Assembly (NCBI RefSeq): GCF_000022265.1
Contig: NC_011979.1
Span: 930,001 to 962,000 of the forward strand
Direction of reading: 5' to 3'
DNA: 32,000 nt
Source: Geotalea daltonii FRC-32
GTDB lineage: Bacteria; Desulfobacterota; Desulfuromonadia; Geobacterales; Geobacteraceae
The notes under the pieces were generated by a model. It searched no databases. It was not told the origin of the DNA and saw only the letters and a program-made list of their open reading frames with translations. The translations under genes and the position numbers were made by a program. The stretch's first letter is position 1. Each line of letters begins with the position of its first letter. Shown here one piece after another: positions 144 to 29,283 of this stretch.

Positions 144-185
144 AACACAAGCAGGGCCGCCTGGCAAAGCGGCCCTGCTTGTGTT
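144..185. terminator. Strong GC-rich hairpin, probable bidirectional intrinsic terminator ending the minus-strand envelope operon
   Basis: Perfect 14-bp stem ACAAGCAGGGCCGC (147-160) / GCGGCCCTGCTTGT (169-182) with an 8-nt loop, extendable to 17 bp. A/T-rich TTATAA-type sequence flanks both sides. It sits about 40 nt after the stop of the lipoprotein gene. Confidence 0.7.
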
Positions 186-221: not shown

Positions 222-1115
222 TCAGCGACCCATCATGCCCCCACCCATGGAGCCGCTCATGGGCTGCATCCTGCCGCCGCTGTAGTTCCAGAAATAGTTA
301 TAGCTGGTCATATTGCGGAAGGCTGAGGAGAAATTCCTGAAGCTGGTAGTTGGTATTCCTGCCAGTTGGGTCTGCATCTGGCTCTGCATGGAAATCATGA
401 AGTCGCTGTTCATGCCGAATCCCCGACTGGCGTTATCGCTGATCTGGGGCAGATTCTCGTTGATCTGGCCCATCATGCCGCGGAAGCGGGTGCCGTTGGC
501 GCTGGTGGTGCCGTTCATGACCAGCCCCGACTGGCTTGCCATCAGTCCGGCCATCTGCCGGGCTACCTGGTGCATGGCCTGATAATTTGTCTGGTATTGT
601 CCGGCTCTGGCGCCGGCCACATAATCGCCTAGAATGTTCATGCCGACAGGCATGCCAAGCTGGTTGCGCAACTGGGTGGTGGCTTCGGCCAGGGTCATGC
701 CCGGATTGGCCTCAAGCTTTTCCCTGAGCAGGGTGGAGATGGGGCTGATGAAGTTGCTGACTGTTCCCGAGACCCCGGCGCCCGGGGTGCAGAGCACATA
801 GGTTTTGTCGATGGTCACGCCGGGATTATCCTGGTCGATGGTCTGTCCCGCCACGGCAATGGCCACAATCGGATATTTCCCCACGTCCTCTGGAGCAATG
901 GTCAGTGTGTAAGCGCCGGTGGCATCGGTGGTGGCGGATGGCTCGCCGCTGTCCAGCTGGTAGTTACTGTTCTTGTCCATGAAGACCAGGGCATTCTGCA
1001 GGTATCCGTCGGCGACTACCCCTGCCACCGGGGTGCCTTCAACACTGCTGCTGCCGCCACAGGCGGCGATTAACCCCATGCTTGTCGCTACGAGAATCGC
1101 ACATATCTTTTTCAT
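222..1115 (-). CDS. Met-rich lipoprotein (297 aa), function unknown
   Basis: The ORF-track call 222-1451 is over-extended. The internal ATG at 1115 is preceded by AAGGAG and gives MKKICAILVATSMGLIAAC with lipobox IAAC. The N-terminal part looks like an Ig/carboxypeptidase-regulatory-type beta domain (ADGYLQNALVFMDKNSNYQLDSGEPSATTDATGAYTL). The C-terminal half is Gln/Met/Asn-rich and ends GGRMQPMSGSMGGGMMGR. Confidence 0.75.
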   Translation of the reverse strand: MKKICAILVATSMGLIAACGGSSSVEGTPVAGVVADGYLQNALVFMDKNSNYQLDSGEPSATTDATGAYTLTIAPEDVGKYPIVAIAVAGQTIDQDNPGVTIDKTYVLCTPGAGVSGTVSNFISPISTLLREKLEANPGMTLAEATTQLRNQLGMPVGMNILGDYVAGARAGQYQTNYQAMHQVARQMAGLMASQSGLVMNGTTSANGTRFRGMMGQINENLPQISDNASRGFGMNSDFMISMQSQMQTQLAGIPTTSFRNFSSAFRNMTSYNYFWNYSGGRMQPMSGSMGGGMMGR

Positions 1116-1138
1116 TTTGCTTGCTCCTTTTTTGTTGG

Positions 1139-2020
1139 CTACAGATCGTAGAAAACGGAGAATCCGGTACTGTAATCTGCGGTTGAGGATGTTATTCCTT
1201 TGGCTGCGTAAAATTCGATGCCTATCTTTGATGTTACCTGGTAGATCAGCTTCAGGCGTGCTTCCAGCAATGCCGTTGCATCTTCGGTGAGAGCCGTAGA
1301 GCTTTTGAGGATGAAGGCCGGCATGAAGTTGTCGGTAACCTGGTAGCCGAGGCCGCCGTTCAGGCTGAAGTAGTTTTTCAAGGAGAGGCCGTCTACCTTG
1401 CCCTGAAAGGTGTAGCCCGGTTCGACGACGGTCTGCCAGTCGCCGAACCATTTGAAGAATTCAATGGCAAAGCCCTCGTCGAACTTGCCGGTTCCCAGGC
1501 CCCTGTCGCTGTCGGCAGTGGGGATCTTCACCGACAGGTGAGGGCGGATCTGCGGCAGTATCGCCCCTTCTTTGGCCATGATGTAGCCGGCGCGCAGGGT
1601 GATGTCGCCGAGGCCGCTCTGGGCCCTGCCGGTGTCGCTGGTGGTCATTGCTGTGGCGCCGCTTCCGGTCATGCCCGATCCGGAGCCTGGTGTCCCCATG
1701 GCTTCGGTTGCCTTGGCCATCCCTGACTGCTGTCCCAGCATCTGCCGGAACTGGCCTGCAACCACGTTGCTGTTGCTCTGTCGCACCCAGGGAAATTCCA
1801 CGGAGAAGGCTGCGCGCTCCCCGGGGGTTACGGTGACCGTCAGGGGAACGACGATGGAGTCGGTGCGGACCGGGCTACCGTAGCTTCCCGATGTGAATTC
1901 CATTCCGAGCCCCAGTGAAAGCAACCGGTCGGAAGCTTCTGCTGTTGATGCTGCAACAATGGATACAACAGTTAACGCCATTACCTTAAACAGTACTTTT
2001 GTCGTCACTTTTTTTCCCAT
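1139..2020 (-). CDS. Outer-membrane beta-barrel protein, MetA-pathway/transporter-like family (PF13557-like), with a Met/Gly-rich loop
   Basis: Signal peptide ends AEA-SD. Alternating beta-strand pattern, GLGDITLRAGY motif and C-terminal FSVFYDL are as recalled for this barrel family. A loop at aa 94-128 reads MLGQQSGMAKATEAMGTPGSGSGMTGSGATAMTTSD. The start is uncertain, either ATG 2020 or the GTG 12 nt downstream. Confidence 0.7.
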   Translation of the reverse strand: MGKKVTTKVLFKVMALTVVSIVAASTAEASDRLLSLGLGMEFTSGSYGSPVRTDSIVVPLTVTVTPGERAAFSVEFPWVRQSNSNVVAGQFRQMLGQQSGMAKATEAMGTPGSGSGMTGSGATAMTTSDTGRAQSGLGDITLRAGYIMAKEGAILPQIRPHLSVKIPTADSDRGLGTGKFDEGFAIEFFKWFGDWQTVVEPGYTFQGKVDGLSLKNYFSLNGGLGYQVTDNFMPAFILKSSTALTEDATALLEARLKLIYQVTSKIGIEFYAAKGITSSTADYSTGFSVFYDL

Positions 2021-2042
2021 TCTCCTTGAATCTCCCGATTTA

Positions 2043-2573
2043 TTACCGCCGCATCATGCCGCCACCGCCACGCATCATGCCGCCTCGGAAGCCCATGCTC
2101 CGTTCGGTGCGATTCAAGCGCATTTCCCCCATGCCCCGTCCCGACCAGAGACCGATACCCTTCTCGTCGCGAAGCTCCACCCGGCTGCCGCGGGTCTTGT
2201 CGGTAAGCTTCTGGGCCATGAGATAACTCTTGCCATCCTGCCCCTGGGCCAGTGAGCCCTTGGCGGTCACTTCGTCGTTGACGTTTATGGCGATGCCCTT
2301 TGTTTCCCAGAACGATGACGGACCGACGCAAATATTGATGATTTCGTCGCTGCTTTTGACCGTGATCGTGACCTGTTTTTCCGGGGAATTGCGGGGAGGG
2401 CCGATGACTGTACCGTTAATGGTGGTGACGGTATTGATATCGTAGCCGCCGTTCAGGTCAAGACCGCTCCTGGTGGAGTCGCTGCCGAAACCAAAACCGG
2501 CCCATGCAGCTCCGGTCAAAACCGGGCACAGGATGGTTGCGGCAATCAAGATGAAGACATGGCGGCTGGGCAT
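2043..2573 (-). CDS. Secreted OB-fold-like protein (MamS/MamX-like or BOF-like) with a Gly/Met/Arg tail
   Basis: Signal peptide MPSRHVFILIAATILCPVLTGAAWA-GF. The core reads ITVKSSDEIINICVGPSSFWETKGIAINVNDEVTAKGS...LRDEKGIGLWSG, which matches my recollection of small periplasmic OB-fold proteins common in Geobacter and Desulfovibrio. The C-terminus is GRGMGEMRLNRTERSMGFRGGMMRGGGGMMRR. Confidence 0.7.
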   Translation of the reverse strand: MPSRHVFILIAATILCPVLTGAAWAGFGFGSDSTRSGLDLNGGYDINTVTTINGTVIGPPRNSPEKQVTITVKSSDEIINICVGPSSFWETKGIAINVNDEVTAKGSLAQGQDGKSYLMAQKLTDKTRGSRVELRDEKGIGLWSGRGMGEMRLNRTERSMGFRGGMMRGGGGMMRR

Positions 2574-2587
2574 GGGGTGTTACCTTT

Positions 2588-2878
2588 TCAATTGTTCGGT
2601 GGTGGCGCCTGTTCGGTCTGTGCAGGTGCCGGTTGCGATACGGTTGCATCTCTCTGATACTGCTTGCCGCGGCCGTCCATGGGGCGTTGATTTCCTGTCC
2701 CCTGTCCCTTCGGACCGGTGCCGTCGCAGGCAGGCTTGGTTGCAGCTGCTCTGTTCTGGCAGTTGGCACAACCGCCGTTGCCGTTGCCCCGTGATCCGTT
2801 GCTTCCCTTGGCAAACGCGGGGAAGGCACCGGCAAGGACGACAATTGCCGTGACCGTATAGATCAATGTTTTTTTCAT
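2588..2878 (-). CDS. Small secreted Gly/Asn/Gln/Pro-rich protein with CxxC (96 aa)
   Basis: Strong RBS GAAGGAGGAA lies before ATG 2878. Sec signal is MKKTLIYTVTAIVVLAGAFPAFA. The mature part is low complexity with GGCANCQ plus a third Cys. Only 14 nt separate it from the next gene. Confidence 0.6.
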   Translation of the reverse strand: MKKTLIYTVTAIVVLAGAFPAFAKGSNGSRGNGNGGCANCQNRAAATKPACDGTGPKGQGTGNQRPMDGRGKQYQRDATVSQPAPAQTEQAPPPNN

Positions 2879-2916
2879 GGTTCCTCCTTCTCTGGGATGT
2901 TTTGCTGAAGGAGTTA

Positions 2917-2933
2917 TTCCATGTTCTATGCCA
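2917..2933 (-). promoter_or_regulatory. Weak candidate sigma-54-like promoter (non-canonical -12) for the envelope operon
   Basis: The minus strand reads TTGGCAT-AGAAC-ATGGAA about 50 nt upstream of ATG 2878. The -24 element TGGCAT is good, but the -12 position has GG instead of the conserved GC. A sigma-70 alternative is TTGCAG-N18-TAGAAC. Confidence 0.25.
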
Positions 2934-2999
2934 AGGGGACTATTCCCTGCAACATTGCGAAATCATTGCTTAAGACAATGGGCAGCCTTGATGGATGTG

Positions 3000-3035
3000 G
3001 TGCAGAAAATTGCACTAGTGGTGAAAGGATTGCAC
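3000..3035. promoter_or_regulatory. Candidate enhancer (UAS) half-sites for the adjacent NtrC-type activator
   Basis: Palindrome GTGCA(3000-3004)-N6-TGCAC(3011-3015), with a further TGCAC at 3031-3035, 20 bp (two helical turns) away. These lie 70-105 bp upstream of the TGGCAT element, a geometry typical of activator binding sites. Confidence 0.3.
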
Positions 3036-3039
3036 CATC

Positions 3040-4398
3040 CTATGTCTCGCCAATGAGGTCGTATTCCCTGAGCCTGTATTGCAGGGTCCGACGGGAAATT
3101 CCCAGCTCGTCGGCCGTCAGTCTGCGGTTGCCACGGTTTTTCTGCAAGGCCTTGACGATCATTTCCCGCTCCATGCTGCGCAGCATATCTCTGCTGCCTC
3201 CTGGCTTTTCCTGGACTTGGCGGTTGAAAAGCGATTCGGGCAGATGTTCAGGTCTGATACAGTCGTGGGCAAGGATAGCTGCTCGTTCCATGACGTTCTG
3301 CAACTCCCGCACGTTGCCTGGCCAAGGATGGGAGCGCATGGCCCTGAGTACCTCCGGCTCTATTCGCTGCAGCTTCTTATTGAGTTGACGGCAGAAACGT
3401 TGCAGGAAGAAATCCACCAGGGCCGGCAAGGCATCTAGCCGCTCACGTAGCGGTGGGAGCAGCAGCGGGAAGACATTCAGGCGGTAATACAGATCTTCGC
3501 GGAAGCGCCTCGCGGCAACTTCATCCTCCAGGTGGCGGTTGGTAGCGGCTATGATACGCACGTCGACCTTGATTTCTTTTCGCCCGCCAACCCGTTCGAA
3601 GACGCGTTCCTGGATAACGCGCAGCATCTTTGCCTGGACAGCCGGCGGCATTTCCCCCACCTCGTCGAGGAAGATGGTTCCCCCAGCTGCCAGCTCGAAT
3701 TTCCCCTGTCGCGCCTGCAATGCTCCGGTGAATGCTCCCCGTTCATGGCCGAAAAGTTCGCTTTCCAGGAGATTTTCCGGGATTGCTGCACAGTTGAGAG
3801 CGACAAAAGGCAACCTGCTTCTTGGGCTGAGGAGGTGTACGGTCCTGGCAACCAGCTCCTTACCGGTGCCGCTTTCTCCACAGACAAGGACGTTGGCGGT
3901 CGTTGCCGCCACATCGTAAACCATCTTTCGTAGCGTCTGCATGACTTGCCCGGCAAAGACAAGTTCTTCGGGGGGAAGGCCTGCCGCTTCTGCTTCCTTC
4001 AGGGAAAGAAAAGCCCGGTTTCTAGTCTGGCTCTCCATGGTCCTGGCAACCAGGGAGAGGAGCGCTTCCGGAGCGGCAAGGGGCTTGGTGAGAAAATCGA
4101 CAGCCCCTTCCTTCATGGCGGCCACTGCCTCATCCACCGTGCCGAAGGCGGTCAAAAAGATGAATGGGGGCGAGCCAGGATCCTGTCTCGTTTCCCGAAA
4201 CAGCTCAAGGCCGCTTTTGCCCGGCATTTTCAGATCGGTAATGACCAAATCGAAGCTCTCCCTCGCAAGCACCCGGTCCCCCTCACGGCCATCACCTGCC
4301 AGACGCACTTCATAACCTTCGTCCTCCAGTATGGTCTGGAGAAAGCTCCTGAAGGTTTCGTCATCCTCGATCAACAGAATGCAACCTTTTGTTAACAC
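3040..4398 (-). CDS. Sigma-54-dependent response regulator (REC, AAA+ activator, Fis-type HTH; NtrC/ZraR family)
   Basis: Motifs seen: ILLIEDDE...ITDLKMPG receiver, Walker A GESGTGKE, GAFTGA loop (GHERGAFTGA), ESELFGHE, and C-terminal HTH LTADELGISRRTLQYRLREY. The start is trimmed from the ORF-track 4515 to GTG 4398, which is preceded by GGGAGG and lies 11 nt after the kinase stop. Confidence 0.9.
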   Translation of the reverse strand: MLTKGCILLIEDDETFRSFLQTILEDEGYEVRLAGDGREGDRVLARESFDLVITDLKMPGKSGLELFRETRQDPGSPPFIFLTAFGTVDEAVAAMKEGAVDFLTKPLAAPEALLSLVARTMESQTRNRAFLSLKEAEAAGLPPEELVFAGQVMQTLRKMVYDVAATTANVLVCGESGTGKELVARTVHLLSPRSRLPFVALNCAAIPENLLESELFGHERGAFTGALQARQGKFELAAGGTIFLDEVGEMPPAVQAKMLRVIQERVFERVGGRKEIKVDVRIIAATNRHLEDEVAARRFREDLYYRLNVFPLLLPPLRERLDALPALVDFFLQRFCRQLNKKLQRIEPEVLRAMRSHPWPGNVRELQNVMERAAILAHDCIRPEHLPESLFNRQVQEKPGGSRDMLRSMEREMIVKALQKNRGNRRLTADELGISRRTLQYRLREYDLIGET

Positions 4399-4409
4399 TC
4401 GAAGCCTCC

Positions 4410-5630
4410 CTACGCCGCCATGGCGGCGGGAAAAGTCAAGGTAATCGCGGCGCCCCGGCCGGGTTTGCCGGCCACGCCGATGGTGCCGCCGTGTTCCTCG
4501 ACGATCTTTTTGCAAATGGCGAGCCCGAGGCCTGTCCCTCTGGCTTTGGTGGTAAAAAACGGTTCAAAGATCCGCTCTGCTACTTCTTTGCCGATACCTG
4601 CTCCATTGTCGGTAATGACCATGGTCACCCCTGCCTGTGACCGATCGGCAACGATATCGACCATTCCCCCATGGGAAACGGCCTGTACAGCGTTCTGCAG
4701 CAGATTGAGCATCACCTGTCCAAGACGATCCCGGTCGCCACTTAGCCTCAAGTCTTCCGGGCATTTAATGGATATGATAACTCCTTTTGCTTCCACCTCT
4801 CCCCTGACCAGGGCAACAGCCCCTTCGATAAGGCCACATACCACGAAATCAGTTGCAGAAATCGGTCCACTGCGGGCATAGGAGAGGAGATTGAAGACCA
4901 GGCTTTCCAGTCGCAACGTTTCTGCGACGATCTTTCCGGCAAAGGCACTGTTTCGTTCATCCATCGGCTTTTTCCCGATCACCTGGGCGAAACCCTTGAT
5001 TCCTGCCAGGGGGTTTCTGATTTCGTGGGCGAGCATGGCGCCCATTTCTCCCAGCCTGGCAAGGTCTTTCCGGTGGGCCATTTCTCGCTGGTGTTGTTTT
5101 TCCCTGAGGGCGAAGCGGTAGATGACAGCGGAGAGGATCCAGCCGGCCATTAGCAGCGAAAAGAGGATCGCCATGTTGAGTTTCGCCTTGCGGATAACGG
5201 TGTCTGCCCGATAGGTATGGAGGGTGAGGTGCAGTTTAAGGGTGCTGCTCGGGAGGTGGATTGGGGTAATGTATTGGTAGGCTTTTTCTCCGGTGCCGAG
5301 GGTGACGCGGCTCTCACCGGTCTCGCCGGCTGCTGCGGGGCGAGGGGCTTCGACCGGTTGGCCGATCAGATCGGGGTTGGAGTGAAAGCGATAGATGCCT
5401 TTGTCGTCGGTCAGGGCGAGAAAGGCCATATCGGCAGGGTGGAGCCCCTCAAGCGTCTCCAGAGAGGGATCATGATAGACGATATTTTCCACGGCCGAGG
5501 TTATGGAGAGGGCGACGCCGCGAAGATTTTCTTCGGCAATGGCAGAAGCATCGTGATAATTGCGTACTGCAAACCAGCATAGTGACGTGGTCAAGACTAT
5601 ACCGACAAGCAGAACAACTCTTTTCAGCAT
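4410..5630 (-). CDS. Membrane sensor histidine kinase (two TM segments, ~150-aa periplasmic loop, HisKA and HATPase_c; ZraS/AtoS-like H-box)
   Basis: H-box is LAHEIRNPLAGIKGF, N-box is LLQNAVQA, G-boxes are DNGAGI and GTGLGL. N-terminal TM is VVLLVGIVLTTSLCWFAV and the second TM is AILFSLLMAGWILSAVIY. Confidence 0.9.
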   Translation of the reverse strand: MLKRVVLLVGIVLTTSLCWFAVRNYHDASAIAEENLRGVALSITSAVENIVYHDPSLETLEGLHPADMAFLALTDDKGIYRFHSNPDLIGQPVEAPRPAAAGETGESRVTLGTGEKAYQYITPIHLPSSTLKLHLTLHTYRADTVIRKAKLNMAILFSLLMAGWILSAVIYRFALREKQHQREMAHRKDLARLGEMGAMLAHEIRNPLAGIKGFAQVIGKKPMDERNSAFAGKIVAETLRLESLVFNLLSYARSGPISATDFVVCGLIEGAVALVRGEVEAKGVIISIKCPEDLRLSGDRDRLGQVMLNLLQNAVQAVSHGGMVDIVADRSQAGVTMVITDNGAGIGKEVAERIFEPFFTTKARGTGLGLAICKKIVEEHGGTIGVAGKPGRGAAITLTFPAAMAA

Positions 5631-5637
5631 CAGTTTC

Positions 5638-6036
5638 TCACAGTACCGACAGCACCCGCTCCATTTTCTCCCTGACCTTTCCGGCCAGCTGGGATATTTC
5701 CGGATTGCCGATCAGGGCCAGGGCTGCCACCGGGTCCATTATCATGACGGCGGTGCTGCCGTCATCCGTCTCGTAAACAACCACATTGCAGGGGAGCAGG
5801 GTGCCGATATTCAGCTCCCTGGCGAATGCCTCCCAGGCCATTGCCGGGTTGCATGCCCCTAAAATGACATATTTGCGAAAATTCCTGTCCAGCTTCTCCT
5901 TGAACTTGCGGGAGACATCGATTTCGGTGAGAATACCGAAACCCTCCTGGAGCAGCTCTTTTCGTACTTTCGTTTCCGTTTCCTCGAATGAAGACTGCAC
6001 TGTTTTACCGAAAGCATATGGTGTCTGCAGGTCCAT
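5638..6036 (-). CDS. DUF302 domain protein (132 aa)
   Basis: Trimmed to ATG 6036, preceded by AAGGAG. The sequence is MDLQTPYAFGKTVQSSFEETETKVRKELLQEGFGILTEIDVSRKFKEKL...YVILGACNP...LLPCNVVVYE, which matches the DUF302 pattern as I recall it. Its stop lies 7 nt before the kinase start. Confidence 0.75.
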   Translation of the reverse strand: MDLQTPYAFGKTVQSSFEETETKVRKELLQEGFGILTEIDVSRKFKEKLDRNFRKYVILGACNPAMAWEAFARELNIGTLLPCNVVVYETDDGSTAVMIMDPVAALALIGNPEISQLAGKVREKMERVLSVL

Positions 6037-6268: not shown

Positions 6269-6631
6269 ATGGGTAAAACAGCGGCTGTTAAATTCATTTC
6301 CTGGATTCTTCTTCTGGTCGTAATGACCGTGACGCTGCATTGCGTCACGGAAAACGCCCATGCCGTGCAAAACTGCCTGCCCATGGCCGGCGACCCTACC
6401 TCCTGTCAAAAGATACAATCTCACCAGTGCCCTTGTTCCCCCCCGGAACAGGACCAGAACCACAATGATTGCGACGCCTGCATCAATTGCGTTTGCCATG
6501 CACCTCTTACGGTCCAGCAATTCCACCTCAGTTACAAGCCAATCATCATTAGTTTTAGCTCGTCTGATCCCTTCAAGCACTTACCCGAAGTCTATCTTTC
6601 CAAGTTTGTTCCTCCTCAGAATCAAGCCTGA
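6269..6631 (+). CDS. Secreted Cys/His-rich small protein (120 aa), putative metal-binding accessory of the efflux operon
   Basis: Signal peptide MGKTAAVKFISWILLLVVMTVTLHCVTENAHA-VQ. The mature part has 8 Cys and several His (CQKIQSHQCPCSPP...HNDCDACINCVCH). It sits directly upstream of and co-oriented with the RND operon. Confidence 0.6.
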   Translation: MGKTAAVKFISWILLLVVMTVTLHCVTENAHAVQNCLPMAGDPTSCQKIQSHQCPCSPPEQDQNHNDCDACINCVCHAPLTVQQFHLSYKPIIISFSSSDPFKHLPEVYLSKFVPPQNQA

Positions 6632-6760
6632 CCAGCTTCGACGGGAGTAGTTCGCCCTTGTTCAGGGATAGTTGCTCCGCGTCTTCAGTCGTGGTATTTC
6701 CCCGTATCCTTTAGTATTGTCGCACCAAAACGAATAAACAGAATAAAGGAGGTTTTTCCT

Positions 6761-8047
6761 TTGGGAACAACTGTATTTGGAAAAGGAGCTTGGCTCTTTG
6801 TGCCCGGCATCCTCTGTTTTCTGACTTCTGCACCGGTATTCGCCGAGACACAGAAGCTGGCGTTGCCGCAGGTAATCGAAATTTCGTTACAGAACAACGG
6901 TGATCTCAAATCGTTCCGTGAAGAGAAAGGCATTCGCGATGCCGGTAAAAACCGTGCGGGACTGCTGCCCAATCCTACCCTCGAACTGAACGGAGGCACC
7001 GGTGCCCTGACCGGCAGCAGCGCCGAAAACAGCCTGTCGCTAGGGATTTCCCAGGAGTTCCTGCTGGCCGGAAAACGCCATAAACGGCTCGTCATCGCTG
7101 AACAGGAACTGGCAGCGTACCGGTGGCAACTGGCTGATCGTGAACGAGCGCTCCGCGAAGAGGTCAAGATGGCATTCTATGACGCCATACTGGCTGAACA
7201 GCGGCTTAACCTGACGGACCGTTCCATTGCACTCAATAGACAACTCCTTGATGTGACAAAGGAGCGTCTGGCCGCCGGAGACATTCCGGAGCTGGAAATG
7301 AATCTGGTCAAAGTGGAATTGACGCGCAGTGAAGGTACACGAATCGAGGTCGAGCGTGCGCTGCTGCAAAACCGCGCCAGACTTTTCACGCTGATGGGGT
7401 TGCCGGCCATTGAATCTCCGGCGATTGCAGGGAATCTGGATAATGACCTGCCTACGGCAAAGAGTCTGGTCGATCTGAAACAGCTGGCGCTCGTGAAACG
7501 TCCTGATCTGAAAGTATTGGAGGCGGAAAAATCAAAGGGGGAAGCGGATATTGCCCTTGCCAAGTCGGAAGCCATCCCGAACCTTACCGCCGGCTTCACG
7601 GTAACACGCGAGGCAACGACCATAGAGGTGGGCGGAGTGGAAGGCAAGGACACGGACTATATCGTCGGCGTGAAGCTGTCGATCCCCATTCCGGTGTTCG
7701 ATAAAAATCAGGCCGGTATTCAAGAAGCCAGGGCCAAGCGGAGTACTACCGACAGCCGTTTTACTGCAGCCACAAGGAGAGCTGAACGGGAAGTAGAGAC
7801 TGCCCATGCCAGCTATCTCAATGCCGATAAGATCCTCTCACTCTACAAATCGAACATCATTCCCCAGCTTGAAGAAAACCTGAAGCTGACCCAGGAAGCA
7901 TATCGCCTCGGTGAAGTCGGCATTCTGGCCGTCATCCAGGAACAAAAGAAATTCTTCGAAAGCAATGAAGCTTACCTTACGGCGCTTCACAGCCGGCAGC
8001 TGGCGCTGACAAAGCTGGAGGCGGCGGTGGGTGTGTCATTTGATTAA
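6761..8047 (+). CDS. TolC-family outer membrane efflux factor (CzcC/CusC-like)
   Basis: TTG start is preceded by AAAGGAGG. Signal peptide ends FAETQ. Two coiled-coil/barrel repeats with LPNPTLELNGG and typical OEP helices. It is the first gene of an OMF-MFP-RND triad. Confidence 0.85.
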   Translation: MGTTVFGKGAWLFVPGILCFLTSAPVFAETQKLALPQVIEISLQNNGDLKSFREEKGIRDAGKNRAGLLPNPTLELNGGTGALTGSSAENSLSLGISQEFLLAGKRHKRLVIAEQELAAYRWQLADRERALREEVKMAFYDAILAEQRLNLTDRSIALNRQLLDVTKERLAAGDIPELEMNLVKVELTRSEGTRIEVERALLQNRARLFTLMGLPAIESPAIAGNLDNDLPTAKSLVDLKQLALVKRPDLKVLEAEKSKGEADIALAKSEAIPNLTAGFTVTREATTIEVGGVEGKDTDYIVGVKLSIPIPVFDKNQAGIQEARAKRSTTDSRFTAATRRAEREVETAHASYLNADKILSLYKSNIIPQLEENLKLTQEAYRLGEVGILAVIQEQKKFFESNEAYLTALHSRQLALTKLEAAVGVSFD

Positions 8048-8053
8048 TCTATC

Positions 8054-8109
8054 GTAGGGGCGATCCTTGTGATCGTCCAGATAAGGGCAAACACAAGGTT
8101 TGCCCCTAC
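8054..8109. repeat. REP/BIME-like inverted pair of ~22-nt hairpin units in the OMF-MFP intergenic gap
   Basis: Unit 1 is GGGGCGATCCTTGTGATCGTCC (8057-8078). Unit 2 is GGGCAAACACAAGGTTTGCCCC (8085-8106), a diverged reverse-complement copy. The outer GTAGGGGC (8054-8061) can alternatively pair with GCCCCTAC (8102-8109). Confidence 0.55.
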
Positions 8110-8134
8110 ACGACCAACGTATTTGGAGGAAACC

Positions 8135-9391
8135 GTGAACAAGAAAGCAATCATCATCGGACTCATCCTTGCCCTGGTCCTGGGGGGGGGCGTCGCCTAC
8201 CAGCTGACCCATTCCGTAACAGGAGGTGACGAGCATGCCGAACATAAGGACGAAAAGGGTGTCCACGAAGAGAAGGAACACAAGGAAGAGAAGGGAGGAC
8301 ATGAGGGCCATGAGGAAAAGAGTGAGGCTGGCAGCGTCAAGATGACCGCCGAGGTACAGAAGGAGAATGGCGTGGTAGTGACCGTTGCGAAGAAGCAGCC
8401 CATTGCCGGTATGATCAGCGCCACCGGTAAGGTTGAGGCCAATGCCGACCGAATCGCTCATGTCTCACCGCGCATCTCAGGCAAGATAGTCGCCGTTAAG
8501 GCCTCTTTAGGGGATAGCGTGGCTTCCGGACAATCCTTGGCGACCCTGGACAGCATCGAACTGGGGGAAGCCCTCAACCGTTACCAACAGTCGAAAACGA
8601 AACTTGCCCTGGCCCAGTCGAATATGGACCGGATCAAGGCCCTTGTGGAAAAGAAGATTGCCGCTCGCAAAGATATCCTCCAGGCGGAAACCGATTACAA
8701 GACCGCCCAAACCGAGCTGCATACCGACGAAGAGCGCTTGTCGCTGTATGGTGTTTCTGCGTCTGACCTCAAAGGAGACGGCCACAAAAAGCCGCGTCTG
8801 CCGGTACGCTCCCCAATCGGCGGCATCATTACCGAAAAACACGCTATCGTCGGCGAACTGGCCGATCCCTCCAAGAGCCTCTACACCGTTGCCGACCTCT
8901 CGTCGGTATGGGTGTTGGTGGACATTCACGAAAAGGACCTGGCCAAGGTGCGTAGGGGACAGCCGGCCATTGTCTCGGTAGGCGCATTTCCCGACCAGAA
9001 GCTGAAAGGTCGTATCACGTACATCGCCGATTTAGTTGACGAGACTACCAGAACTGTTAAAGCGCGGATTGAAGTTCCCAATCCCGGTCGGAAGCTGAAA
9101 CCGGAGATGTTCGCTACTGTCGAATTGGCGCTTTCGGCTGGTGCACCGCCGGTTCTGGCTGTTCCCGAAGATGCCGTGCAGGACCTGGATGGTAAAAAGG
9201 TCGTCTTCATCGCGGAAAGTGATGCAGAGTTCGCCGTGCGCCAGGTTCAGGCAGGCCGGACGGCAGGCGGCATGGTCGAGATTGTCTCCGGCCTGAAAGA
9301 GGGTGATCGCTATGCAATCAAAGGAGCATTCATTCTCAAGTCGGAAATAAAGAAGGGCGAACTCGTCGACGAGCATGGCCACGGAGAGTAA
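8135..9391 (+). CDS. RND efflux periplasmic adaptor (HlyD/CzcB/CusB family) with a His/Glu/Lys-rich N-terminal segment
   Basis: Start trimmed to GTG 8135, after GGAGGAA. TM anchor is AIIIGLILALVLGGG. His-rich stretch is DEHAEHKDEKGVHEEKEHKEEKGGHEGHEEKSE (8225-8326). It has typical barrel-sandwich, lipoyl and beta-barrel regions and a DEHGHGE C-terminus. Confidence 0.85.
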   Translation: MNKKAIIIGLILALVLGGGVAYQLTHSVTGGDEHAEHKDEKGVHEEKEHKEEKGGHEGHEEKSEAGSVKMTAEVQKENGVVVTVAKKQPIAGMISATGKVEANADRIAHVSPRISGKIVAVKASLGDSVASGQSLATLDSIELGEALNRYQQSKTKLALAQSNMDRIKALVEKKIAARKDILQAETDYKTAQTELHTDEERLSLYGVSASDLKGDGHKKPRLPVRSPIGGIITEKHAIVGELADPSKSLYTVADLSSVWVLVDIHEKDLAKVRRGQPAIVSVGAFPDQKLKGRITYIADLVDETTRTVKARIEVPNPGRKLKPEMFATVELALSAGAPPVLAVPEDAVQDLDGKKVVFIAESDAEFAVRQVQAGRTAGGMVEIVSGLKEGDRYAIKGAFILKSEIKKGELVDEHGHGE

Positions 9392-9549
9392 CCCCCCTGT
9401 CCTGAGGGACGTAACGTTGTGACTGGAGCGGAGCATCGATGAAGTCGCCATTTTCGCCCCCTCTTAAGGTAAGAGGACCCACAGGGCCTAAAGGGGACGT
9501 GGGGAATTATGAACCGGTGCTGACTGCACAGCAACAGGAGAAAATACCG

Positions 9550-12500
9550 ATGCTGGAAAAAATAATTGCCTGCACATTACGGCAGAAAGGGATGGTCATC
9601 TTCCTTTCCCTGCTGATTGTTGCCTTGGGATTGTATTCTTATCTGAAATTGCCGATCGATGCATTTCCGGATGTAACGAACATTCAGGTTGAAGTGGTAA
9701 GTCACGCCGACGGACTGTCGGCACTAGAAATTGAGAGGAATGTAACCTACCCGATTGAAATGGCAATGCGGGGCCTGCCCGACATCGAACAAATGCGTTC
9801 GGTGACCAAGTTCGGCCTGTCGATTGTCACCATTGTCTTCAAGGACAATGTGGATATCTATTTTGCACGCCAGCTGGTTTTCGAGCGGTTGGCGGAGGCC
9901 CGTGAAAAGGTCCCCAAGGGGGTTGAGGTAGCCATGGGGCCGATCGGCACGGCCATGGGGGAGATTTACCAATATACCCTCGAAGGAAAGATGCCGGCTG
10001 ACCCACAGCAGAAGCTCGCCTATTTGACCAATCTGAGAACCATTCAGGAGTGGATTGTCACCCCCCAGCTGAAAAGTGTTGCCGGCGTAAACGAGATCAA
10101 CTCCTTCGGCGGGTATTTCAAGCAGTACCAGGTGATCGTGGCCCCGGAAAAGCTGCTCAAATATGCCATAACCGTGGACGATGTCTATTCCGCCATCGGC
10201 AGCAACAACGAGAACGTCGGCGGCAACCTCTTAGAGCGGGGCACCGATCAGTACATCGTCCGCGGGGTCGGTTTGATAAAAGACGTCAGCGACATAGAAA
10301 ATATCGTCCTGAAGTCTGCCGGTGGTACTCCGACGTATATCCGCGATGTGGCCCAGGTCAAGGTCGGCGAGGCGGTCCGCATGGGCGCCGCCATGAAGGA
10401 CGGCAAGGATGAGTGTGTCGGCGGCATCGTCATGATGCTGCGCGGCGAAAACAGCCGTGACGTTGTGCGCCGGGTAGCGGAAAAAGTAAAGGAAATGAAT
10501 GAAAACAATGTGCTTCCGGAGGGGATCAAACTTGTTCCCTATTATGACCGGAGCGACATTGTAAAAGCGAGTGTGGGTACCGTCAACAAAGCGCTGATCG
10601 AGGGCTCAATCCTGGTCCTGATCGTGCTGTACCTCTTGCTGAACAGTTTCCGGGGCAGTTTTGTCGTCCTTATCGCCTTGCCGCTGTCTCTATTGGCGAC
10701 ATTCATCGTCATGAAACTTGTCGGCATAACCGCCAACCTGATGTCCCTCGGCGGTCTGGCCATTTCCATCGGCATGATCATCGATACGACCATTATCCAG
10801 GTGGAAAACGTCCAGCGACATTTGAGCGAAGAGGGAGGAAAGCACCCTGGATTAATGACCGTGCTGAAAGCGGTCATGGAAGTCAGAAAGCCGAGTATCT
10901 TCGGCGAGCTTATCATTGCTCTCACTTTCATCCCCATCCTTTCCCTGGAAGGTCACGAAGGAAAGATGTTCGGCCCATTGGCTATAACGGTGACAATTGC
11001 ACTTCTTGCCTCATTGTTCCTGTCAATATTCGTTATCCCGGTCCTCTGCATCCTGTTTCTGAAACCGCACCCGGAAAAAGAGAGTTTCCTCATGAAGCAT
11101 GCCGGCAGGCTCTATCTGCCGCTGCTCGACTATGCCATGAATACGAAGCGCGTGGTGTTGAGTGTTGCGGGTCTGCTTCTGGTTGTTTCTCTCTTCCTGT
11201 TAACACGGCTGGGAACGGAGTTCATCCCGATCATGGATGAAGGCTCGTTTGACATGGATGTTTCCATGCTCCCCGGTGTTTCCCTGGCCAAGGCTTTGGA
11301 AGTAAACCAAATGGCCGCAGCGAAGCTGAAGCAGTTTCCGGAATTGGACACTGTCGTGGGCCGAACCGGGCAGACCGGGGTCGCCCTGGATACCAGGGGG
11401 GCTGACAAGACCGGCTACGTGGGGATCTTCAAACCGAAGGACGAATGGAAGCGGGATATATCCAAAGAAGAGCTGATCAATGAGATGCGGGAATCTCTTG
11501 AATCGATTGCAGGCATTACTTTCGGCTTCAGTCAGCCGATCCAATGCCGTATTGACGAACTCCTTGCCGGAACACGGGCGCAGCTGATTCTCAAGCTGTT
11601 TGGTGAAGATATCGATGTGCTGAGTGAGAAATCGGCCGAAATCGCCAAAGTTCTGTCCACGGTAAAGGGTGGGACCGATCTGAATGCGGAAAAAGTTACG
11701 GGGCAGCCCTACCTGACGGTCAACATCGACCGGGCAAAGATTGCCCGCTATGGCCTGAATATCAGTGACGTGCAAAAGGTGATCGAAATTGCCGTGGCTG
11801 GTAAAGCAGCATCGCAGCTGTTTGAGGAAAATCGCAGCTTCGATATCTCGGTTCGCCTGCCGGAAGAAAAAAGGAATTCCCTGGAAGCGATCAAGAATCT
11901 GATGATCACTACGAAAACCGGGATCAATGTGCCGCTGGAACAGCTGGCTGAAGTGGAGATGATCGAAGGCCCGGCCCAGATCAGCCGCCAGGACGGAGTG
12001 AGAAGAATCGGCATCGAGATGAACATCACTGGCCGGGATATGGGCGGATTTGTTGCCGAGGCCAAGCAGAAAATCAAGGAGCAGGTCAAGCTGCCGGCCG
12101 GCTATTATCTCACCTGGGGTGGACAATTCGAGAATCAGCAACGGGCCATGAACAAGCTGATGATCATCGGACCGGTAGCCATCGGTTTGATACTGCTGCT
12201 GCTGTACGTCACATTCAGATCGATCCGCCTGGCGTTGCTGGTCATCTGCAATCTGCCGTTCGCCTTGATCGGCGGAGTCTTCGCCCTCTTCATGTCGGGG
12301 CAATATCTGTCGGTTCCGGCATCGGTAGGATTTGTCGTTTTGTTCGGCGTTGCCGTCCTGAACGGGCTGGTTCTGGTATCGCGCATCTCGCAACTGCGTG
12401 ATGAAGGCTTTGGATTGCAGGAGGCCATCAGGAAGGGAAGTCTCGATCGATTGCGTCCGGTACTGATGACCGCATCAATCGCTATTTTCAGTCTGATGCC

Positions 12501-12654
12501 CATGCTGCTGGCAAGCGGAACGGGCTCTGAAATCCAGAAGCCACTGGCAACGGTTGTTGTGGGGGGACTGGTTACCTCGACGCTGCTGACACTGCTGATC
12601 ATCCCGTCGGTGTATGGCTGGTTCGAGAAGAGGAAGGTCGAAATGGAAATGTAA
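9550..12654 (+). CDS. Heavy-metal efflux RND permease (CusA/CzcA family, 1034 aa)
   Basis: Start trimmed to ATG 9550, after AGGAG. N-terminus MLEKIIACTLRQKGMVIFLSLLIVALGLYSYLKLPIDAFPDVTNIQVEV is typical of HME-RND pumps. It has 12 TM segments and two large periplasmic loops. The TM4 motif is NLMSLGGLAISIGMIIDTTIIQVEN (10735-10809). Confidence 0.92.
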   Translation: MLEKIIACTLRQKGMVIFLSLLIVALGLYSYLKLPIDAFPDVTNIQVEVVSHADGLSALEIERNVTYPIEMAMRGLPDIEQMRSVTKFGLSIVTIVFKDNVDIYFARQLVFERLAEAREKVPKGVEVAMGPIGTAMGEIYQYTLEGKMPADPQQKLAYLTNLRTIQEWIVTPQLKSVAGVNEINSFGGYFKQYQVIVAPEKLLKYAITVDDVYSAIGSNNENVGGNLLERGTDQYIVRGVGLIKDVSDIENIVLKSAGGTPTYIRDVAQVKVGEAVRMGAAMKDGKDECVGGIVMMLRGENSRDVVRRVAEKVKEMNENNVLPEGIKLVPYYDRSDIVKASVGTVNKALIEGSILVLIVLYLLLNSFRGSFVVLIALPLSLLATFIVMKLVGITANLMSLGGLAISIGMIIDTTIIQVENVQRHLSEEGGKHPGLMTVLKAVMEVRKPSIFGELIIALTFIPILSLEGHEGKMFGPLAITVTIALLASLFLSIFVIPVLCILFLKPHPEKESFLMKHAGRLYLPLLDYAMNTKRVVLSVAGLLLVVSLFLLTRLGTEFIPIMDEGSFDMDVSMLPGVSLAKALEVNQMAAAKLKQFPELDTVVGRTGQTGVALDTRGADKTGYVGIFKPKDEWKRDISKEELINEMRESLESIAGITFGFSQPIQCRIDELLAGTRAQLILKLFGEDIDVLSEKSAEIAKVLSTVKGGTDLNAEKVTGQPYLTVNIDRAKIARYGLNISDVQKVIEIAVAGKAASQLFEENRSFDISVRLPEEKRNSLEAIKNLMITTKTGINVPLEQLAEVEMIEGPAQISRQDGVRRIGIEMNITGRDMGGFVAEAKQKIKEQVKLPAGYYLTWGGQFENQQRAMNKLMIIGPVAIGLILLLLYVTFRSIRLALLVICNLPFALIGGVFALFMSGQYLSVPASVGFVVLFGVAVLNGLVLVSRISQLRDEGFGLQEAIRKGSLDRLRPVLMTASIAIFSLMPMLLASGTGSEIQKPLATVVVGGLVTSTLLTLLIIPSVYGWFEKRKVEMEM

Positions 12655-12660
12655 TAAAAA

Positions 12661-12740
12661 ACATGTACCGCAGGGTGCGCAGAGGGTGCTGGGGAAAAGA
12701 GAAGAGTTTCTGCCAATCTCTGCGCGCACTGCGGCATGTA
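12661..12740. repeat. Long imperfect inverted repeat (23-nt arms, ~33-nt loop) immediately after the RND stop; a terminator-like or REP-like element
   Basis: Arm ACATGTACCGCAGGGTGCGCAGAG (12661-12684) pairs with CTCTGCGCGCACTGCGGCATGTA (12718-12740). About 20 of 23 positions pair, including G-U. No T-tract follows. Confidence 0.5.
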
Positions 12741-13171
12741 ACTGTAATTGCTGATCTCTATAAAAGAAGGTGTATGTAAGTTTGACCTTTGGCTGGGATG
12801 CTGGTTGGCTATATCCCAAAAAGCGGGGTGGGGTGCGCCTCCGGTCTGATAAGAATGGCTGTGAGAGAGGAAATTACGGGATTTGGCGGAGGATGTTGCT
12901 GCTCTTGATCAGTTAACATCCGGTAACCATAGGGGTTTTTCGCTGACCTCCGGGCTGATTTATCGTGTTTAAGCGATATTTTTTTTCTCTACACTAATAA
13001 ACAGCTTCCTTAAGCATGACCATCCCTTCCGGACTCTTTTTTTTCATTCCTGATAATTCCTTCCCCCTCTAGTCCTGCCTTCTCCACTCACATCCGATGT
13101 TATATCTGGTTATATTTATGGAATGAATCTTGAATTAATGCTGACCAAACTGTCTGCGAAGGGAAAGATTC

Positions 13172-14023
13172 ATGGTACCTGGTGTCAGAATAACAGTTGT
13201 TGTGTCAATTATCCTGTCAATCGTGCTGTCCCTTGCTGAACGCCATCATGCTCTGGCTGGGGAAACCATCCGGATCAATGGTTCCGGTGCAGCTTTGGAC
13301 ATCCTTAAACCGATGATACTGGAGTACAGGAAAAAGCATCCCCAGGTTAATTTCCGGATGGACAGGCCATTGGGAAGTACAGGAGCCATCAAGGCTCTTC
13401 TTGCCGGGGTGGTGGATGTTGCTGTCAGCAGCAAGATTCTTACGCCAGAGGAGTCGGCACAGGGGGCTCTGGCTAGCGATTATGGAAAGATTCCCCTGGC
13501 TGTTGTTTCCACCGCTGGGGTCGGCAAAAAAGAGATAACGACCAGGGAGCTAGAGGATATCTATACCGGAAAGCTGACGAAATGGCCCAATGGTGAGACG
13601 ATCCGCATCATCCTGCGCCCCAGGGAAGACATCGACACGAAAATCCTCGGAGAGCTGTCTCCAGGGATGGGACGCGCGCTGCGGGAGGCACATAAAAAGC
13701 CGGGAATGATTTTTTCCATAACCGACCCGGAAGCCACGGAAAGCATAATCAAAACTCCTGGAGCTATCGGCACGGCAGCCATCTGCTGTGTCATTGACAA
13801 CAAGGGCAGGCTGAATGCCCTCAGCCTCAACGGCAGGAAAGCCTCAGCCAAGGGGGTAGCCGACGGCACTTATCCCCTGGCCAAAGACCTCCGTTTCATC
13901 ACTATCCGCAAAACCCCGCCCGCCGCCCTGGATTTCCTTCGCTTTGTCTACTCTGCCAAAGGGCGTGCCATTGCGGAAAAGGAGGGCATATTGGTTACGG
14001 CAAAGGATGCAGGAAGATCATGA
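13172..14023 (+). CDS. Periplasmic substrate-binding protein, PstS/PBP-like-2 family (orphan; no permease or ATPase nearby)
   Basis: N-terminal signal/anchor is VVVSIILSIVLSLAE. ETIRINGSGAALDILKPMILEYRKKHPQVNFRMDRPLGSTGAIKALLAGVVDVAVSS is the classic type-2 PBP (phosphate-binding-like) pattern. Its stop overlaps the next start (ATGA). Confidence 0.75.
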   Translation: MVPGVRITVVVSIILSIVLSLAERHHALAGETIRINGSGAALDILKPMILEYRKKHPQVNFRMDRPLGSTGAIKALLAGVVDVAVSSKILTPEESAQGALASDYGKIPLAVVSTAGVGKKEITTRELEDIYTGKLTKWPNGETIRIILRPREDIDTKILGELSPGMGRALREAHKKPGMIFSITDPEATESIIKTPGAIGTAAICCVIDNKGRLNALSLNGRKASAKGVADGTYPLAKDLRFITIRKTPPAALDFLRFVYSAKGRAIAEKEGILVTAKDAGRS

Positions 14024-16269: not shown

Positions 16270-16355
16270 GGATCAATCTGCAGCGCCGTTTTCGCCTCCT
16301 TGCCGGTTCTTCAGGGATCGGTTTCCACTGTCGAATACTTTCCTTTCACCATTCC

Positions 16356-17366
16356 TTACTCCTGAAACCTGCTTTTCATGGAAAGGGCAAGTGCCGTGCT
16401 GATGCCTGTTGCCAGCAGTCCCAGCCCCAGCCACTTGTTTTTTGCCAGCCACAGCTGATCGCACTGGTAACTTGCCTGTGCATCGAACCTGCCATGGGCG
16501 CTGAAGTCTCCTTCCACCGGGTGCCACATGTTGTTCGGACGATCCCGTTCTTCAAGTTCATCGGTCTGCTGCCCGGAATAGCCTTTTTTCGCCAGGTACA
16601 GGTCCAGTATGCCGGCAATGAACTTGTTGCCCCACATTGCTTTGACCGTCGGCATTCCCACATAGAGTTCCCGGCGACGATGATGGGAGGACCAGACTAT
16701 GGCGTCGGCGGCAACCTCCGGTTGGAAGATGGGGGGGACCGGCTGCGGCTTGAAAGGCATTCTCGATTTCGTCCAGTTGAACTGGGGGGTGTTCATGGCC
16801 GGCAACTGGACCATGGTGATGTGAACCTTGCTCCGGTCATGGATGAGCTCGCAGCGAATGGAGTCGGTGAAGCCCCTGATGGCATGTTTGGCACCGCAAT
16901 AAGCGGACTGCAGCGGAATGCTCCGTTCTGCGAGGGCAGAGCCGACCTGGATGACCGTCCCCCGGTTGCGGGGAATCATCCGGCTCATGGCTGCCGAGGT
17001 ACCATAGACCACTCCCAGGTAGGTCACCTCGGTCACACGCCGGAACTCGTCCGAGGTCATGTCCTTGAAGGCGGAAAAGACCGAGACCATGGCATTGTTG
17101 ACCCAGACGTCGATTGGCCCAAACTGCTCCTCCACCCTGGCGGCCGCCAGTTCCACCTGGTCGGCATCGGCCACGTCGGCGACGAGAATGATAGCCTCAC
17201 CACCTCTTTCCTCCACCTCCTGCCGGACCGCTTCCAGCCGCTCCTGGTCCCTGGCCAGCAGGCCGATCCTGGCGCCTTCACGGGCAAAGGCCCGGGCAGT
17301 GGCGCGACCGACCCCTGCCGATGCTCCGGTAATCACCACGGTCCGTTTTGTGCCACCAGGTTTCAT
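16356..17366 (-). CDS. Short-chain dehydrogenase/reductase with a C-terminal membrane helix
   Basis: Rossmann motif VVITGASAGVGRA, NNAM, and catalytic YCGAKHA (YxxxK). C-terminal hydrophobic segment is WLGLGLLATGISTALAL. RBS GGAGGG precedes ATG 17366. Confidence 0.85.
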   Translation of the reverse strand: MKPGGTKRTVVITGASAGVGRATARAFAREGARIGLLARDQERLEAVRQEVEERGGEAIILVADVADADQVELAAARVEEQFGPIDVWVNNAMVSVFSAFKDMTSDEFRRVTEVTYLGVVYGTSAAMSRMIPRNRGTVIQVGSALAERSIPLQSAYCGAKHAIRGFTDSIRCELIHDRSKVHITMVQLPAMNTPQFNWTKSRMPFKPQPVPPIFQPEVAADAIVWSSHHRRRELYVGMPTVKAMWGNKFIAGILDLYLAKKGYSGQQTDELEERDRPNNMWHPVEGDFSAHGRFDAQASYQCDQLWLAKNKWLGLGLLATGISTALALSMKSRFQE

Positions 17367-22711: not shown

Positions 22712-22779
22712 TAAATAGTATTGGTTTAATTTAATGATTAATGTGCACATTCACCGCTGCTCCAGGAGGATGCTACAAG

Positions 22780-25701: not shown

Positions 25702-25759
25702 TTGGTGATTGGTGGGGAGTGAGGAGTGAGGAGTGAGGAGTGAGGAGTGAGGAGTGAGG
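25690..25759 (+). repeat. Two adjacent heptanucleotide tandem arrays: (GGTGATT)x3 then (AGTGAGG)x6
   Basis: GGTGATT units start at 25690, 25697 and 25704, followed by a degenerate GGTGGGG. AGTGAGG units start at 25718, 25725, 25732, 25739, 25746 and 25753. The actB stop (25699-25701) lies in the first array. The second array ends about 15 nt before the probable actC start. Confidence 0.95.
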
Positions 25760-25774
25760 GGGTCTGGAGGTACT

Positions 25775-29260: not shown

Positions 29261-29283
29261 TGATTAGCTAACCTTCCCCCCGG

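Follow-up and report, generated by a model that had tools for sequence, protein, structure and literature searches.

Seven closely packed genes encoding a two-component regulatory system and four exported proteins are located on the minus strand of a 32,000-nucleotide (nt) stretch of the Geotalea (formerly Geobacter) daltonii FRC-32 genome (contig NC_011979.1, positions 930,001 to 962,000; hereafter the window, to which all coordinates refer unless a locus is named). Exact look-ups gave the locus tags Geob_0848 to Geob_0854, and the product of Geob_0848 is 100% identical to the G. daltonii FRC-32 protein annotated as "lipoprotein, putative". In the direction of transcription, the block starts with genes for a DUF302 protein of 132 amino acids (aa) without a signal peptide (Geob_0854, 5638-6036), a membrane sensor histidine kinase of 406 aa (Geob_0853, 4410-5630), and an NtrC-family sigma-54-dependent response regulator of 452 aa (Geob_0852, 3040-4398), referred to below as the activator. 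These are followed by the effector operon, which encodes a small secreted protein of 96 aa (Geob_0851, 2588-2878), an exported OB-fold protein of 176 aa (Geob_0850, 2043-2573), an outer-membrane beta-barrel of 293 aa (Geob_0849, 1139-2020), and a lipoprotein of 297 aa (Geob_0848, 222-1115). The open reading frame (ORF) listing and translations give gaps of 7, 11, 161, 14, 22, and 23 nt between consecutive genes, and the spacings reported in an initial annotation of this DNA were all exact on re-computed coordinates. That annotation also described all four effectors as exported, and an N-terminal signal peptide could be read by inspection on each of them. The operon is closed by a GC-rich hairpin (147-182, minus strand) with a 17-18 bp stem and A/U-rich flanks on both sides. 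Its folding energy (-40.2 kcal/mol, z = -6.9, with none of 200 shuffles folding equally well) bears out its earlier description as strong, and it possibly acts as a bidirectional terminator. A simple sigma-70 and terminator scan of the window returned nothing informative, and this hairpin was missed by it because there is no classical T-run.

Pfam searches confirmed the identity of the first three products. The activator matched Response_reg (1.3e-27), Sigma54_activat (1.6e-71), AAA_lid_14, and HTH_8 (1.6e-14), and both a GAFTGA motif and the Walker A sequence GESGTGKE can be read in it. The kinase contains HisKA and HATPase_c domains, a weak match to sCache_3_2, and the H-box AHEIRNPL, so that the pair carries all of the domains of an NtrC-family sigma-54 two-component system. 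The periplasmic domain of the kinase is about 130 aa long, and the sensor motifs YRFHxNxDLxG, TGE, and LHTxRAD are kept across 30 orthologues. A likeness to ZraSR with the same H-box had been noted previously, and the transmitter of Geob_0853 is indeed closest to ZraS, both among NCBIfam models (211 bits against a cut-off of 479) and among solved structures (9jfj). By NCBIfam equivalog cut-offs, neither protein qualifies as a ZraS or ZraR orthologue. The activator scored under every such cut-off (AtoC, 444 of 714; ZraR, 359 of 760), and the AtoC and NtrC models outscored ZraR. The DUF302 protein matched PF03625 at 1e-23, its closest structure is TT1751 (1j3m), and literature on copper contained only incidental mentions of this domain.

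The effector genes are conserved together with this regulatory pair. A genome scan with the lipoprotein profile gave at least 79 loci, onto which the window proteins were mapped by tblastn; all locus counts here are among the loci listed. These were labelled almost entirely as Geobacteraceae, Desulfuromonadales, or "Deltaproteobacteria", with one metagenome-assembled genome labelled Dongiaceae. OB-fold and/or barrel genes were found in 36 loci, and the two genes were always adjacent. Orthologous kinase and activator genes were located immediately upstream of them in 31 of the 32 loci with enough upstream DNA, and an orthologous activator was found in none of the 43 loci that had lipoprotein genes only. 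Four loci are ordered kinase, activator, small protein, lipoprotein, OB-fold protein, and barrel. More distant barrels (32-39% identity; L086 and L087/L088) are flanked by a MamS_MamX OB-fold protein, a small secreted Gly/Thr-rich protein, a kinase, and a sigma-54 response regulator; in L086 the regulators come after the effectors and there is no lipoprotein. Co-conservation of the effectors with the kinase/activator pair in related genomes, which had been suggested as a check on the initial annotation, therefore held in 31 of 32 loci and in two distant permuted ones.

The conserved core therefore consists of the kinase, the activator, the small protein, the OB-fold protein, and the barrel, and the lipoprotein and the DUF302 protein are accessories. 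The DUF302 gene is a variable accessory because it is present in 12 of the 36 core loci and also beside lone lipoprotein genes in four other loci. The lipoprotein gene is more loosely associated, as it also occurs alone, in tandem, after CusA-type pumps, or with genes for ZraP-like proteins. Thus, the four effectors form one unit with the adjacent two-component system as first described, but the seven-gene block is not indivisible, since the lipoprotein and DUF302 genes come and go. The older draft assembly of Geotalea toluenoxydans (JCM 15764, BBCJ01; L002/L008) has fragmented barrel, lipoprotein, RND, purA, and hisS genes. All are intact in the newer assembly of this species (GCA_054653375.1; L001), and the split genes are probably the result of sequencing frameshifts rather than pseudogenes.

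The 161-nt gap between the activator gene and the effector operon contains a conserved putative regulatory region. DNA downstream of the activator gene was aligned from 33 loci, which gave four blocks in the order activator sites, IHF-like block, promoter element, and GGAGG ribosome-binding site with start codon. The most conserved columns are GGTGCAA and, after about 14 nt, the palindrome GTGCAA-N5-TTGCAC. In the window, the corresponding putative activator-binding sites are an upstream half-site GGTGCAA (3030-3036, minus strand) and a palindrome GTGCAA-N5-TGCAC (3000-3015, minus strand). The IHF-like site (2949-2967, minus strand) lies between these and the promoter; the block consensus over the 33 intergenic regions, ATAnCnGnnnGTTA, fits WATCARnnnnTTR, and its assignment to IHF is a tentative one made from this textbook consensus. 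The sigma-54 promoter-like element TTGGCATAGAACATGGAATA (2915-2934, minus strand) has a TGGCAT-N6-TGGA core at 2918-2933, which is the sole match in the window. TGGCAY-N6-TGGA occurs at the same distance from the activator stop codon in 25 of the 33 related loci, within a family block that reads TTGGCAYG-N4-nTGGAATA. The -24 element TGGCAY is canonical, whereas at -12 the expected GC is replaced by GG. Because this deviation is family-wide (L009-L076, and also the distant L087), it suggests altered promoter behavior, either leakiness or activator dependence. In about 25-30 related loci, the predicted enhancer, IHF, and promoter sites occupy fixed positions. The distant relative L087 shows this layout as well, and similar TGCA(A/C) repeats are present in both L086 and L087. 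As read from the alignment, this is the classical enhancer/IHF/sigma-54 promoter arrangement, and the prediction that expression of the four effector genes is sigma-54- and activator-dependent is well supported. The proposal that the four genes form a unit under the adjacent sigma-54 system is upheld by this conserved layout together with the near-perfect co-conservation.

The OB-fold protein (Geob_0850) carries PF26390 (MamS_MamX) in precomputed Pfam annotation, as do all 120 listed homologues, and a separate local Pfam scan gave no match to it. In the AlphaFold2 model, the core (residues 48-132) has a per-residue confidence (pLDDT) above 90 and the C-terminal 30 residues are disordered. A Foldseek search with this model returned canonical OB folds (LysRS anticodon domain, RPA, and Stn1) at about 1e-4, which confirms the "OB-fold-like" label given to it previously; there was no sequence match among PDB chains. 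Because the model matches canonical OB folds, the MamS/MamX domain here appears to be simply a periplasmic OB fold. The protein scored 18.9 bits against the cut-off of 200 for the NCBIfam MamS equivalog, and no mam genes were found in any locus examined. It therefore resembles MamS and MamX in the PF26390 domain, an OB fold in the predicted model, and differs from them in that it is secreted and soluble with a Gly/Met tail, has no magnetochrome heme motifs, and is not part of a magnetosome island. The invariant residues of the core are G, P, W, D, K, A, Q, Y, and R. The tail ends in GGMMRGGGGMMRR in the window, and its C-terminal motif GGGMMRGGGGMMRR hardly varies across 80 homologues and was found in 34 of 34 genomic loci. 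Met makes up 17% of the tail versus a background of 2.8% in the other genes of the window (P = 1e-4), and the core, at about 1%, is not enriched.

The outer-membrane barrel (Geob_0849) matched PF13557 (Phenol_MetA_deg/COG4313) over residues 127-291 with 40.4 bits against a gathering score of 22 (4.7e-10). Its homologues carry PF13557 too, and its earlier assignment as an outer-membrane barrel holds. Aligned orthologues share the motif KxPTADKxxxLGTGxFD and an aromatic residue at the terminus; a search of PDB sequences gave nothing usable. A long segment rich in Gly, Ser, Thr, and Met (approximately residues 83-135), whose topology as a loop we infer, varies among orthologues but contains Met. 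Its Met content is 9.4% (P = 0.015 against the 2.8% background), with no enrichment in the rest of the barrel (about 1%). As in the COG4313 channels Pput2725, TcpY, and SphA, the gathering threshold is passed, the length is that of the family, and a PT(A/G)...GTG-type motif is present (PMC4493636). Unlike Pput2725, the protein has a 50-residue low-complexity Met-bearing loop where Pput2725 has an N-terminal plug, and its context is not catabolic. A Pput2725-like plug is unlikely because only about three residues separate the signal-peptide cleavage site from the first predicted strand.

The lipoprotein (Geob_0848) has the signal peptide MKKICAILVATSMGLIAAC-GG with the lipobox LIAAC and Gly at +2. 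The lipobox Cys (Cys19) is invariant in 77 homologues, in agreement with the first assignment of this protein as a lipoprotein. The AlphaFold2 model, built on the alignment of these 77 sequences, has a pLDDT of 86 and a predicted template-modelling score (pTM) of 0.82, and divides the protein into a Ca-site-like beta-sandwich (28-124), a helical domain rich in Met (125-266), and a GGMMGR tail that is disordered. The protein matched no Pfam or NCBIfam family, a PDB sequence search gave nothing usable, and Foldseek returned no solved structure better than E = 0.15, with a weak Ig-like, transthyretin, or C2 resemblance of the N-terminal sandwich. Met reaches 11% in the C-terminal half (P = 4e-7) and is not enriched in the N-terminal domain (about 1%). 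Eleven Met positions are at least 90% conserved in the 77 homologues, and 80 of 92 family members end in a GGMM[RK]-like sequence with Met within the last 8 residues. The initial annotation had placed Met in the tails and loops of these proteins. The concentration is significant in the OB tail, the barrel loop, and the C-terminal half of the lipoprotein, but in the lipoprotein most of the Met residues are located in confidently predicted helices. The GGMMR tail was also considered as a barrel-docking peptide, and this idea is weakened by lipoprotein paralogues that have no nearby barrel and keep the tail.

There are 535 close homologues of the lipoprotein, almost all from Geobacterales. A profile search of 1.84 billion representative sequences gave 6857 proteins at E <= 1e-3 and 287 at E <= 1e-30. 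Many of these are proteins of 400-1000 aa which share only the N-terminal 200-250 residues of the lipoprotein, a module made up of the lipobox, a sandwich with VADGYL...FLDxNxNxxxDxxEP, and the first helices. The two long proteins that were read in sequence are not Met-rich, and Pfam searches on eight of them gave no informative domain. Because the long relatives share only the N-terminal part, the Met-rich C-terminal half and tail define a Geobacterales subfamily. In one homologue (P0270) a c-type heme domain (CAGCH) replaces the Met tail, a link to redox chemistry. At least 15 loci (including L042, L045, L046, L051, L053, L054, L059, L071, L073, L075, L077, and L080) contain a second recurrent module, a gene for a DUF6502 (PF20112) cytoplasmic protein before two tandem Met-rich lipoprotein paralogues, often downstream of CusCBA and a Met/His-rich periplasmic protein.

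The small secreted protein (Geob_0851) is of low complexity, rich in Gly, Asn, and Gln, and without a match to any Pfam or NCBIfam family. It had been grouped with the Met-rich effectors, which does not hold for the protein in the window, as its mature chain contains a single Met, though most of its orthologues are Met-rich. A small secreted ORF rich in Gly, Met, Thr, Ser, and His occupies the same operon position in 28 loci; Met makes up 7-16% in 20 of these 28, and His up to 8%. The motif [PV]M[DN]G[TSR]G is conserved weakly, with exact [PV]M[DN]G[TS]G in 13 of 28. The CxxC described previously is found in the closest relatives but is not a family feature across orthologues, and it was rejected as a redox or metal site for this reason.

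The metal association proposed for the module had been argued from a divergent "Cus-like" RND operon next to it. This description did not stand: the window pump scored 722 bits with ZneA and 639 bits with CusA, and the CusA Met triad M573/M623/M672 is replaced by D/K/E. The pump is ZneA/CzcA-like, and the operon was rejected as evidence for Cu/Ag after the Met-triad test. In the pump region (8114-12654, plus strand), the membrane-fusion protein has an extended N-terminal stretch rich in His, Glu, and Lys, and carries DEHGHGE at its C-terminus. Together these features suggest an exporter of divalent cations (Zn/Co/Cd/Ni). The RND operon is headed by a gene for a protein of about 101 aa (6326-6631, plus strand), before the outer-membrane factor gene at 6761. 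This protein contains 9% Cys and 7% His with CPC, CDAC, and CVCH motifs, has no Pfam or NCBIfam family, and has homologues (42-53% identity) near metal genes in L024, L037, and L038.

Neighborhoods in other genomes support a metal-homeostasis setting independent of the window's own neighbor. In ten related loci, the module or the lipoprotein gene is located beside an RND pump that keeps the CusA triad and shares about 50% identity with the CusA segment from E. coli. A Met/His-rich periplasmic protein is encoded near the family in at least 20 loci, for which a PDB search gave nothing usable. At least 12 loci contain a gene for cytochrome c' (PF01322), which in many cases immediately precedes the DUF302 or kinase gene (for example, L074 at 9430-9867, L021, L025, L029, L061, and L063). 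Furthermore, four loci and the distant L087 encode a PepSY-like protein, an OmpR-type two-component system, and a ZraP-like protein (NCBIfam ZraP, 6.9e-8; Metal_resist below threshold); three of these four loci also have a CDF transporter gene. The claimed link to metals thus survives through the CusA-type pumps, Met/His-rich proteins, cytochrome c', ZraP-like proteins, and CDF transporters found elsewhere, but the local RND argument for it fails. In L037 and L038 (approximately 6300-17050) there is an exact tandem duplication of about 6.2 kb with an ArsR-like regulator between the copies; the duplicated unit encodes a CDF transporter, an OmpR-type response regulator, a HAMP kinase, a ZraP-like protein, a PepSY-like protein, and a Met-rich lipoprotein.

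The best explanation of the module, to which we give about an even chance, is a conserved, Geobacterales-restricted regulon for metal stress in the envelope. It would be ZraPSR-like, with an effector set that is new and probably directed at Cu(I)/Ag(I). In this model, Geob_0853 would sense a periplasmic cue through its small conserved sensor domain and phosphorylate Geob_0852, which would bind the GTGCAA-N5-TTGCAC sites that closely follow the activator gene itself. Aided by a bend in the DNA at the IHF-like site, the activator would open the sigma-54 promoter, which would drive expression of the four exported proteins, the small and OB-fold proteins in the periplasm and the barrel and lipoprotein at the outer membrane. 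There, the Met/Gly segments would most likely buffer or hand over soft metals alongside RND efflux pumps, with Cu(I)/Ag(I) as the leading candidates ahead of Zn/Cd. We infer the inducing signal, the binding of metal by the Met/Gly segments, and any physical complex of the proteins.

The Gly/Met/His tail of E. coli ZraP, which is under the control of ZraSR, is a precedent for such a module. In common with ZraSR-ZraP, the sigma-54 envelope/zinc stress system of E. coli and Salmonella, the G. daltonii module has a ZraS-like transmitter with the HEIRNPL H-box, an NtrC-type sigma-54 activator, Gly/Met-rich effector segments, and a predicted sigma-54 promoter between the regulator genes and those of the exported effectors, and in related genomes this protein family is found linked to ZraP-like genes. 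Unlike ZraSR, the kinase and activator are far under the equivalog cut-offs, the sensor domain is unrelated in sequence, and the genes are co-directional rather than divergent. Moreover, there is no effector with a ZraP, Spy, or CpxP fold but instead four unrelated exported proteins spanning the periplasm and the outer membrane; none of the four matched PF13801 or the ZraP model, their predicted folds differ, and ZraP-like genes were found only in other loci. The comparison with copper and silver systems is one of functional analogy only. Geob_0850 is a periplasmic OB-fold protein like CusF, with no sequence homology to it and none of its ligand set; the small protein is, in most orthologues, a disordered Met/His-rich periplasmic protein like SilE/PcoE, with no sequence homology to SilE; and the barrel has a Met-rich segment like the outer-membrane protein PcoB, again with no sequence homology. 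The family adjoins true CusA-type pumps in 10 related loci, as in Cus systems, but it has an NtrC-type activator instead of the OmpR-type CusR, and the RND pump in the window has no CusA Met triad.

Several points weigh against the Cu/Ag proposal. No literature was found that ties these genes to any metal, and the pump adjoining the module in G. daltonii is of the divalent-cation type rather than Cus. There is no conserved Met or His in the OB core, unlike the CusF site, and many of the conserved Met residues of the lipoprotein are in well-packed predicted helices, where they could be structural. The related loci are not independent of one another phylogenetically. Met is scarce in the OB tail and the small protein of the two most distant relatives, where both are rich in Gly, Arg, and Thr, so Met may be a lineage feature and not the essence of the system.

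The same pattern bears on a second explanation, which we consider unlikely though worth serious attention, that the regulon serves general envelope stress and chaperoning and is not metal-specific. In this case, the kinase would sense envelope damage, and the disordered Gly/Met-rich segments would be holdase-like or membrane-interacting, as proposed for ZraP, Spy, and CpxP. The Gly/Arg-rich tails that distant relatives keep while losing most of their Met fit this explanation, as do the absence of a conserved metal-ligand constellation in both the OB core and the kinase sensor, the ZraS-like transmitter, and the genomic linkage of ZraP-like proteins to the family. None of the four proteins, however, has a Spy/CpxP/ZraP fold or a Metal_resist match, and the recurrent linkage is specifically to CusA-type pumps and Met/His-rich proteins.

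The constant adjacency of the OB-fold and barrel genes, and the persistence with them, even in distant relatives, of a secreted, disordered small protein encoded first in the operon, would also suit a device for export or display. COG4313 barrels have their closest structural relative in FapF, which exports unfolded amyloid subunits (PMC5557850). The barrel, helped by the OB-fold protein, would thread the small protein, and perhaps GGMMR tails, to the surface as an extracellular coat or metal sponge. We regard this as rather improbable: further Fap or curli components are absent, the Pfam match of the barrel is to PF13557 and not to a FapF model, and the GGMMR tails persist in lipoprotein paralogues without a nearby barrel. 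Slightly less probable again is a fuller version, in which the OB-fold protein and the barrel would be a sigma-54-switched outer-membrane translocation device for disordered Gly/Met-rich polypeptides (the small protein and possibly the GGMMR tails) that provides Geobacterales with an inducible extracellular soft-metal sponge or coat, with C-terminal GGMMR[R] as a new tag for recognition or sorting common to two unrelated families.

There is little chance that the barrel is instead an uptake channel for a hydrophobic organic compound (aromatic or lipid), like TcpY and SphA, with the two-component system sensing the substrate. G. daltonii degrades aromatics, which would be in keeping with such a role. 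The barrel belongs to PF13557, and characterized COG4313 barrels import hydrophobic organics, trichlorophenol or sphingosine in the case of TcpY/SphA, which also counts against the Cu/Ag proposal (PMC4493636). No catabolic genes, however, are linked in any of about 38 loci, and the barrel gene is accompanied by genes for exported proteins rich in Met and Gly and by metal genes. PF13557 aligns with just the C-terminal two thirds of the barrel, whose N-terminus is too short to accommodate a Pput2725-type plug segment. A sacrificial Met sink against oxidants or an iron-mineral-handling module is very improbable: exposed Met-rich segments, cytochrome c' neighbors, the heme-fused lipoprotein homologue, and a MamS_MamX domain (MamS and MamX being known from magnetite biomineralization) in an iron-reducing, magnetite-forming lineage would agree with it, but the domain is simply an OB fold with a MamS score far below the cut-off and no magnetosome genes nearby, and no msrPQ or msrAB was seen among the called or Pfam-annotated genes of the examined loci, where no search was aimed at them.

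Two other features of the window were recorded. An alternative-complex-III-like cluster (22741-31704, plus strand), with a molybdopterin/Fe4S4 subunit and an NrfD/ActD fusion, is followed by heme-copper oxidase subunit I and a FixO/cytochrome c subunit, so that a respiratory enzyme which requires copper is encoded at a distance of about 20 kb from the module. Unrelated to the module, a periplasmic-binding-protein-like gene overlaps the start of a GGDEF-EAL gene by 4 nt (13172-16269, plus strand), and because of this overlap the two proteins are probably a sensory pair.

The literature searched does not mention these genes or this combination, in line with the statement in the initial annotation that no characterized system has this composition. 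The regulatory logic is classical and the effector set is new. Two of the four effectors are in no described family, and the other two are in families with little or no functional knowledge. The new elements include the unannotated families of the Met-rich lipoprotein and the small disordered protein, the use of a MamS/MamX OB domain outside magnetotaxis, the almost invariant GGGMMRGGGGMMRR C-terminal motif, and a clean, conserved sigma-54 regulatory architecture. Geobacterales, which often live in sediments laden with metals, drive metal cycling, bioremediation, and electroactive biofilms, and their envelope metal defenses are poorly charted. If the Cu/Ag proposal is true, the module would use unrelated folds for functions analogous to those of CusF, SilE, and PcoB, and it would extend the ZraSR paradigm beyond a single chaperone effector.

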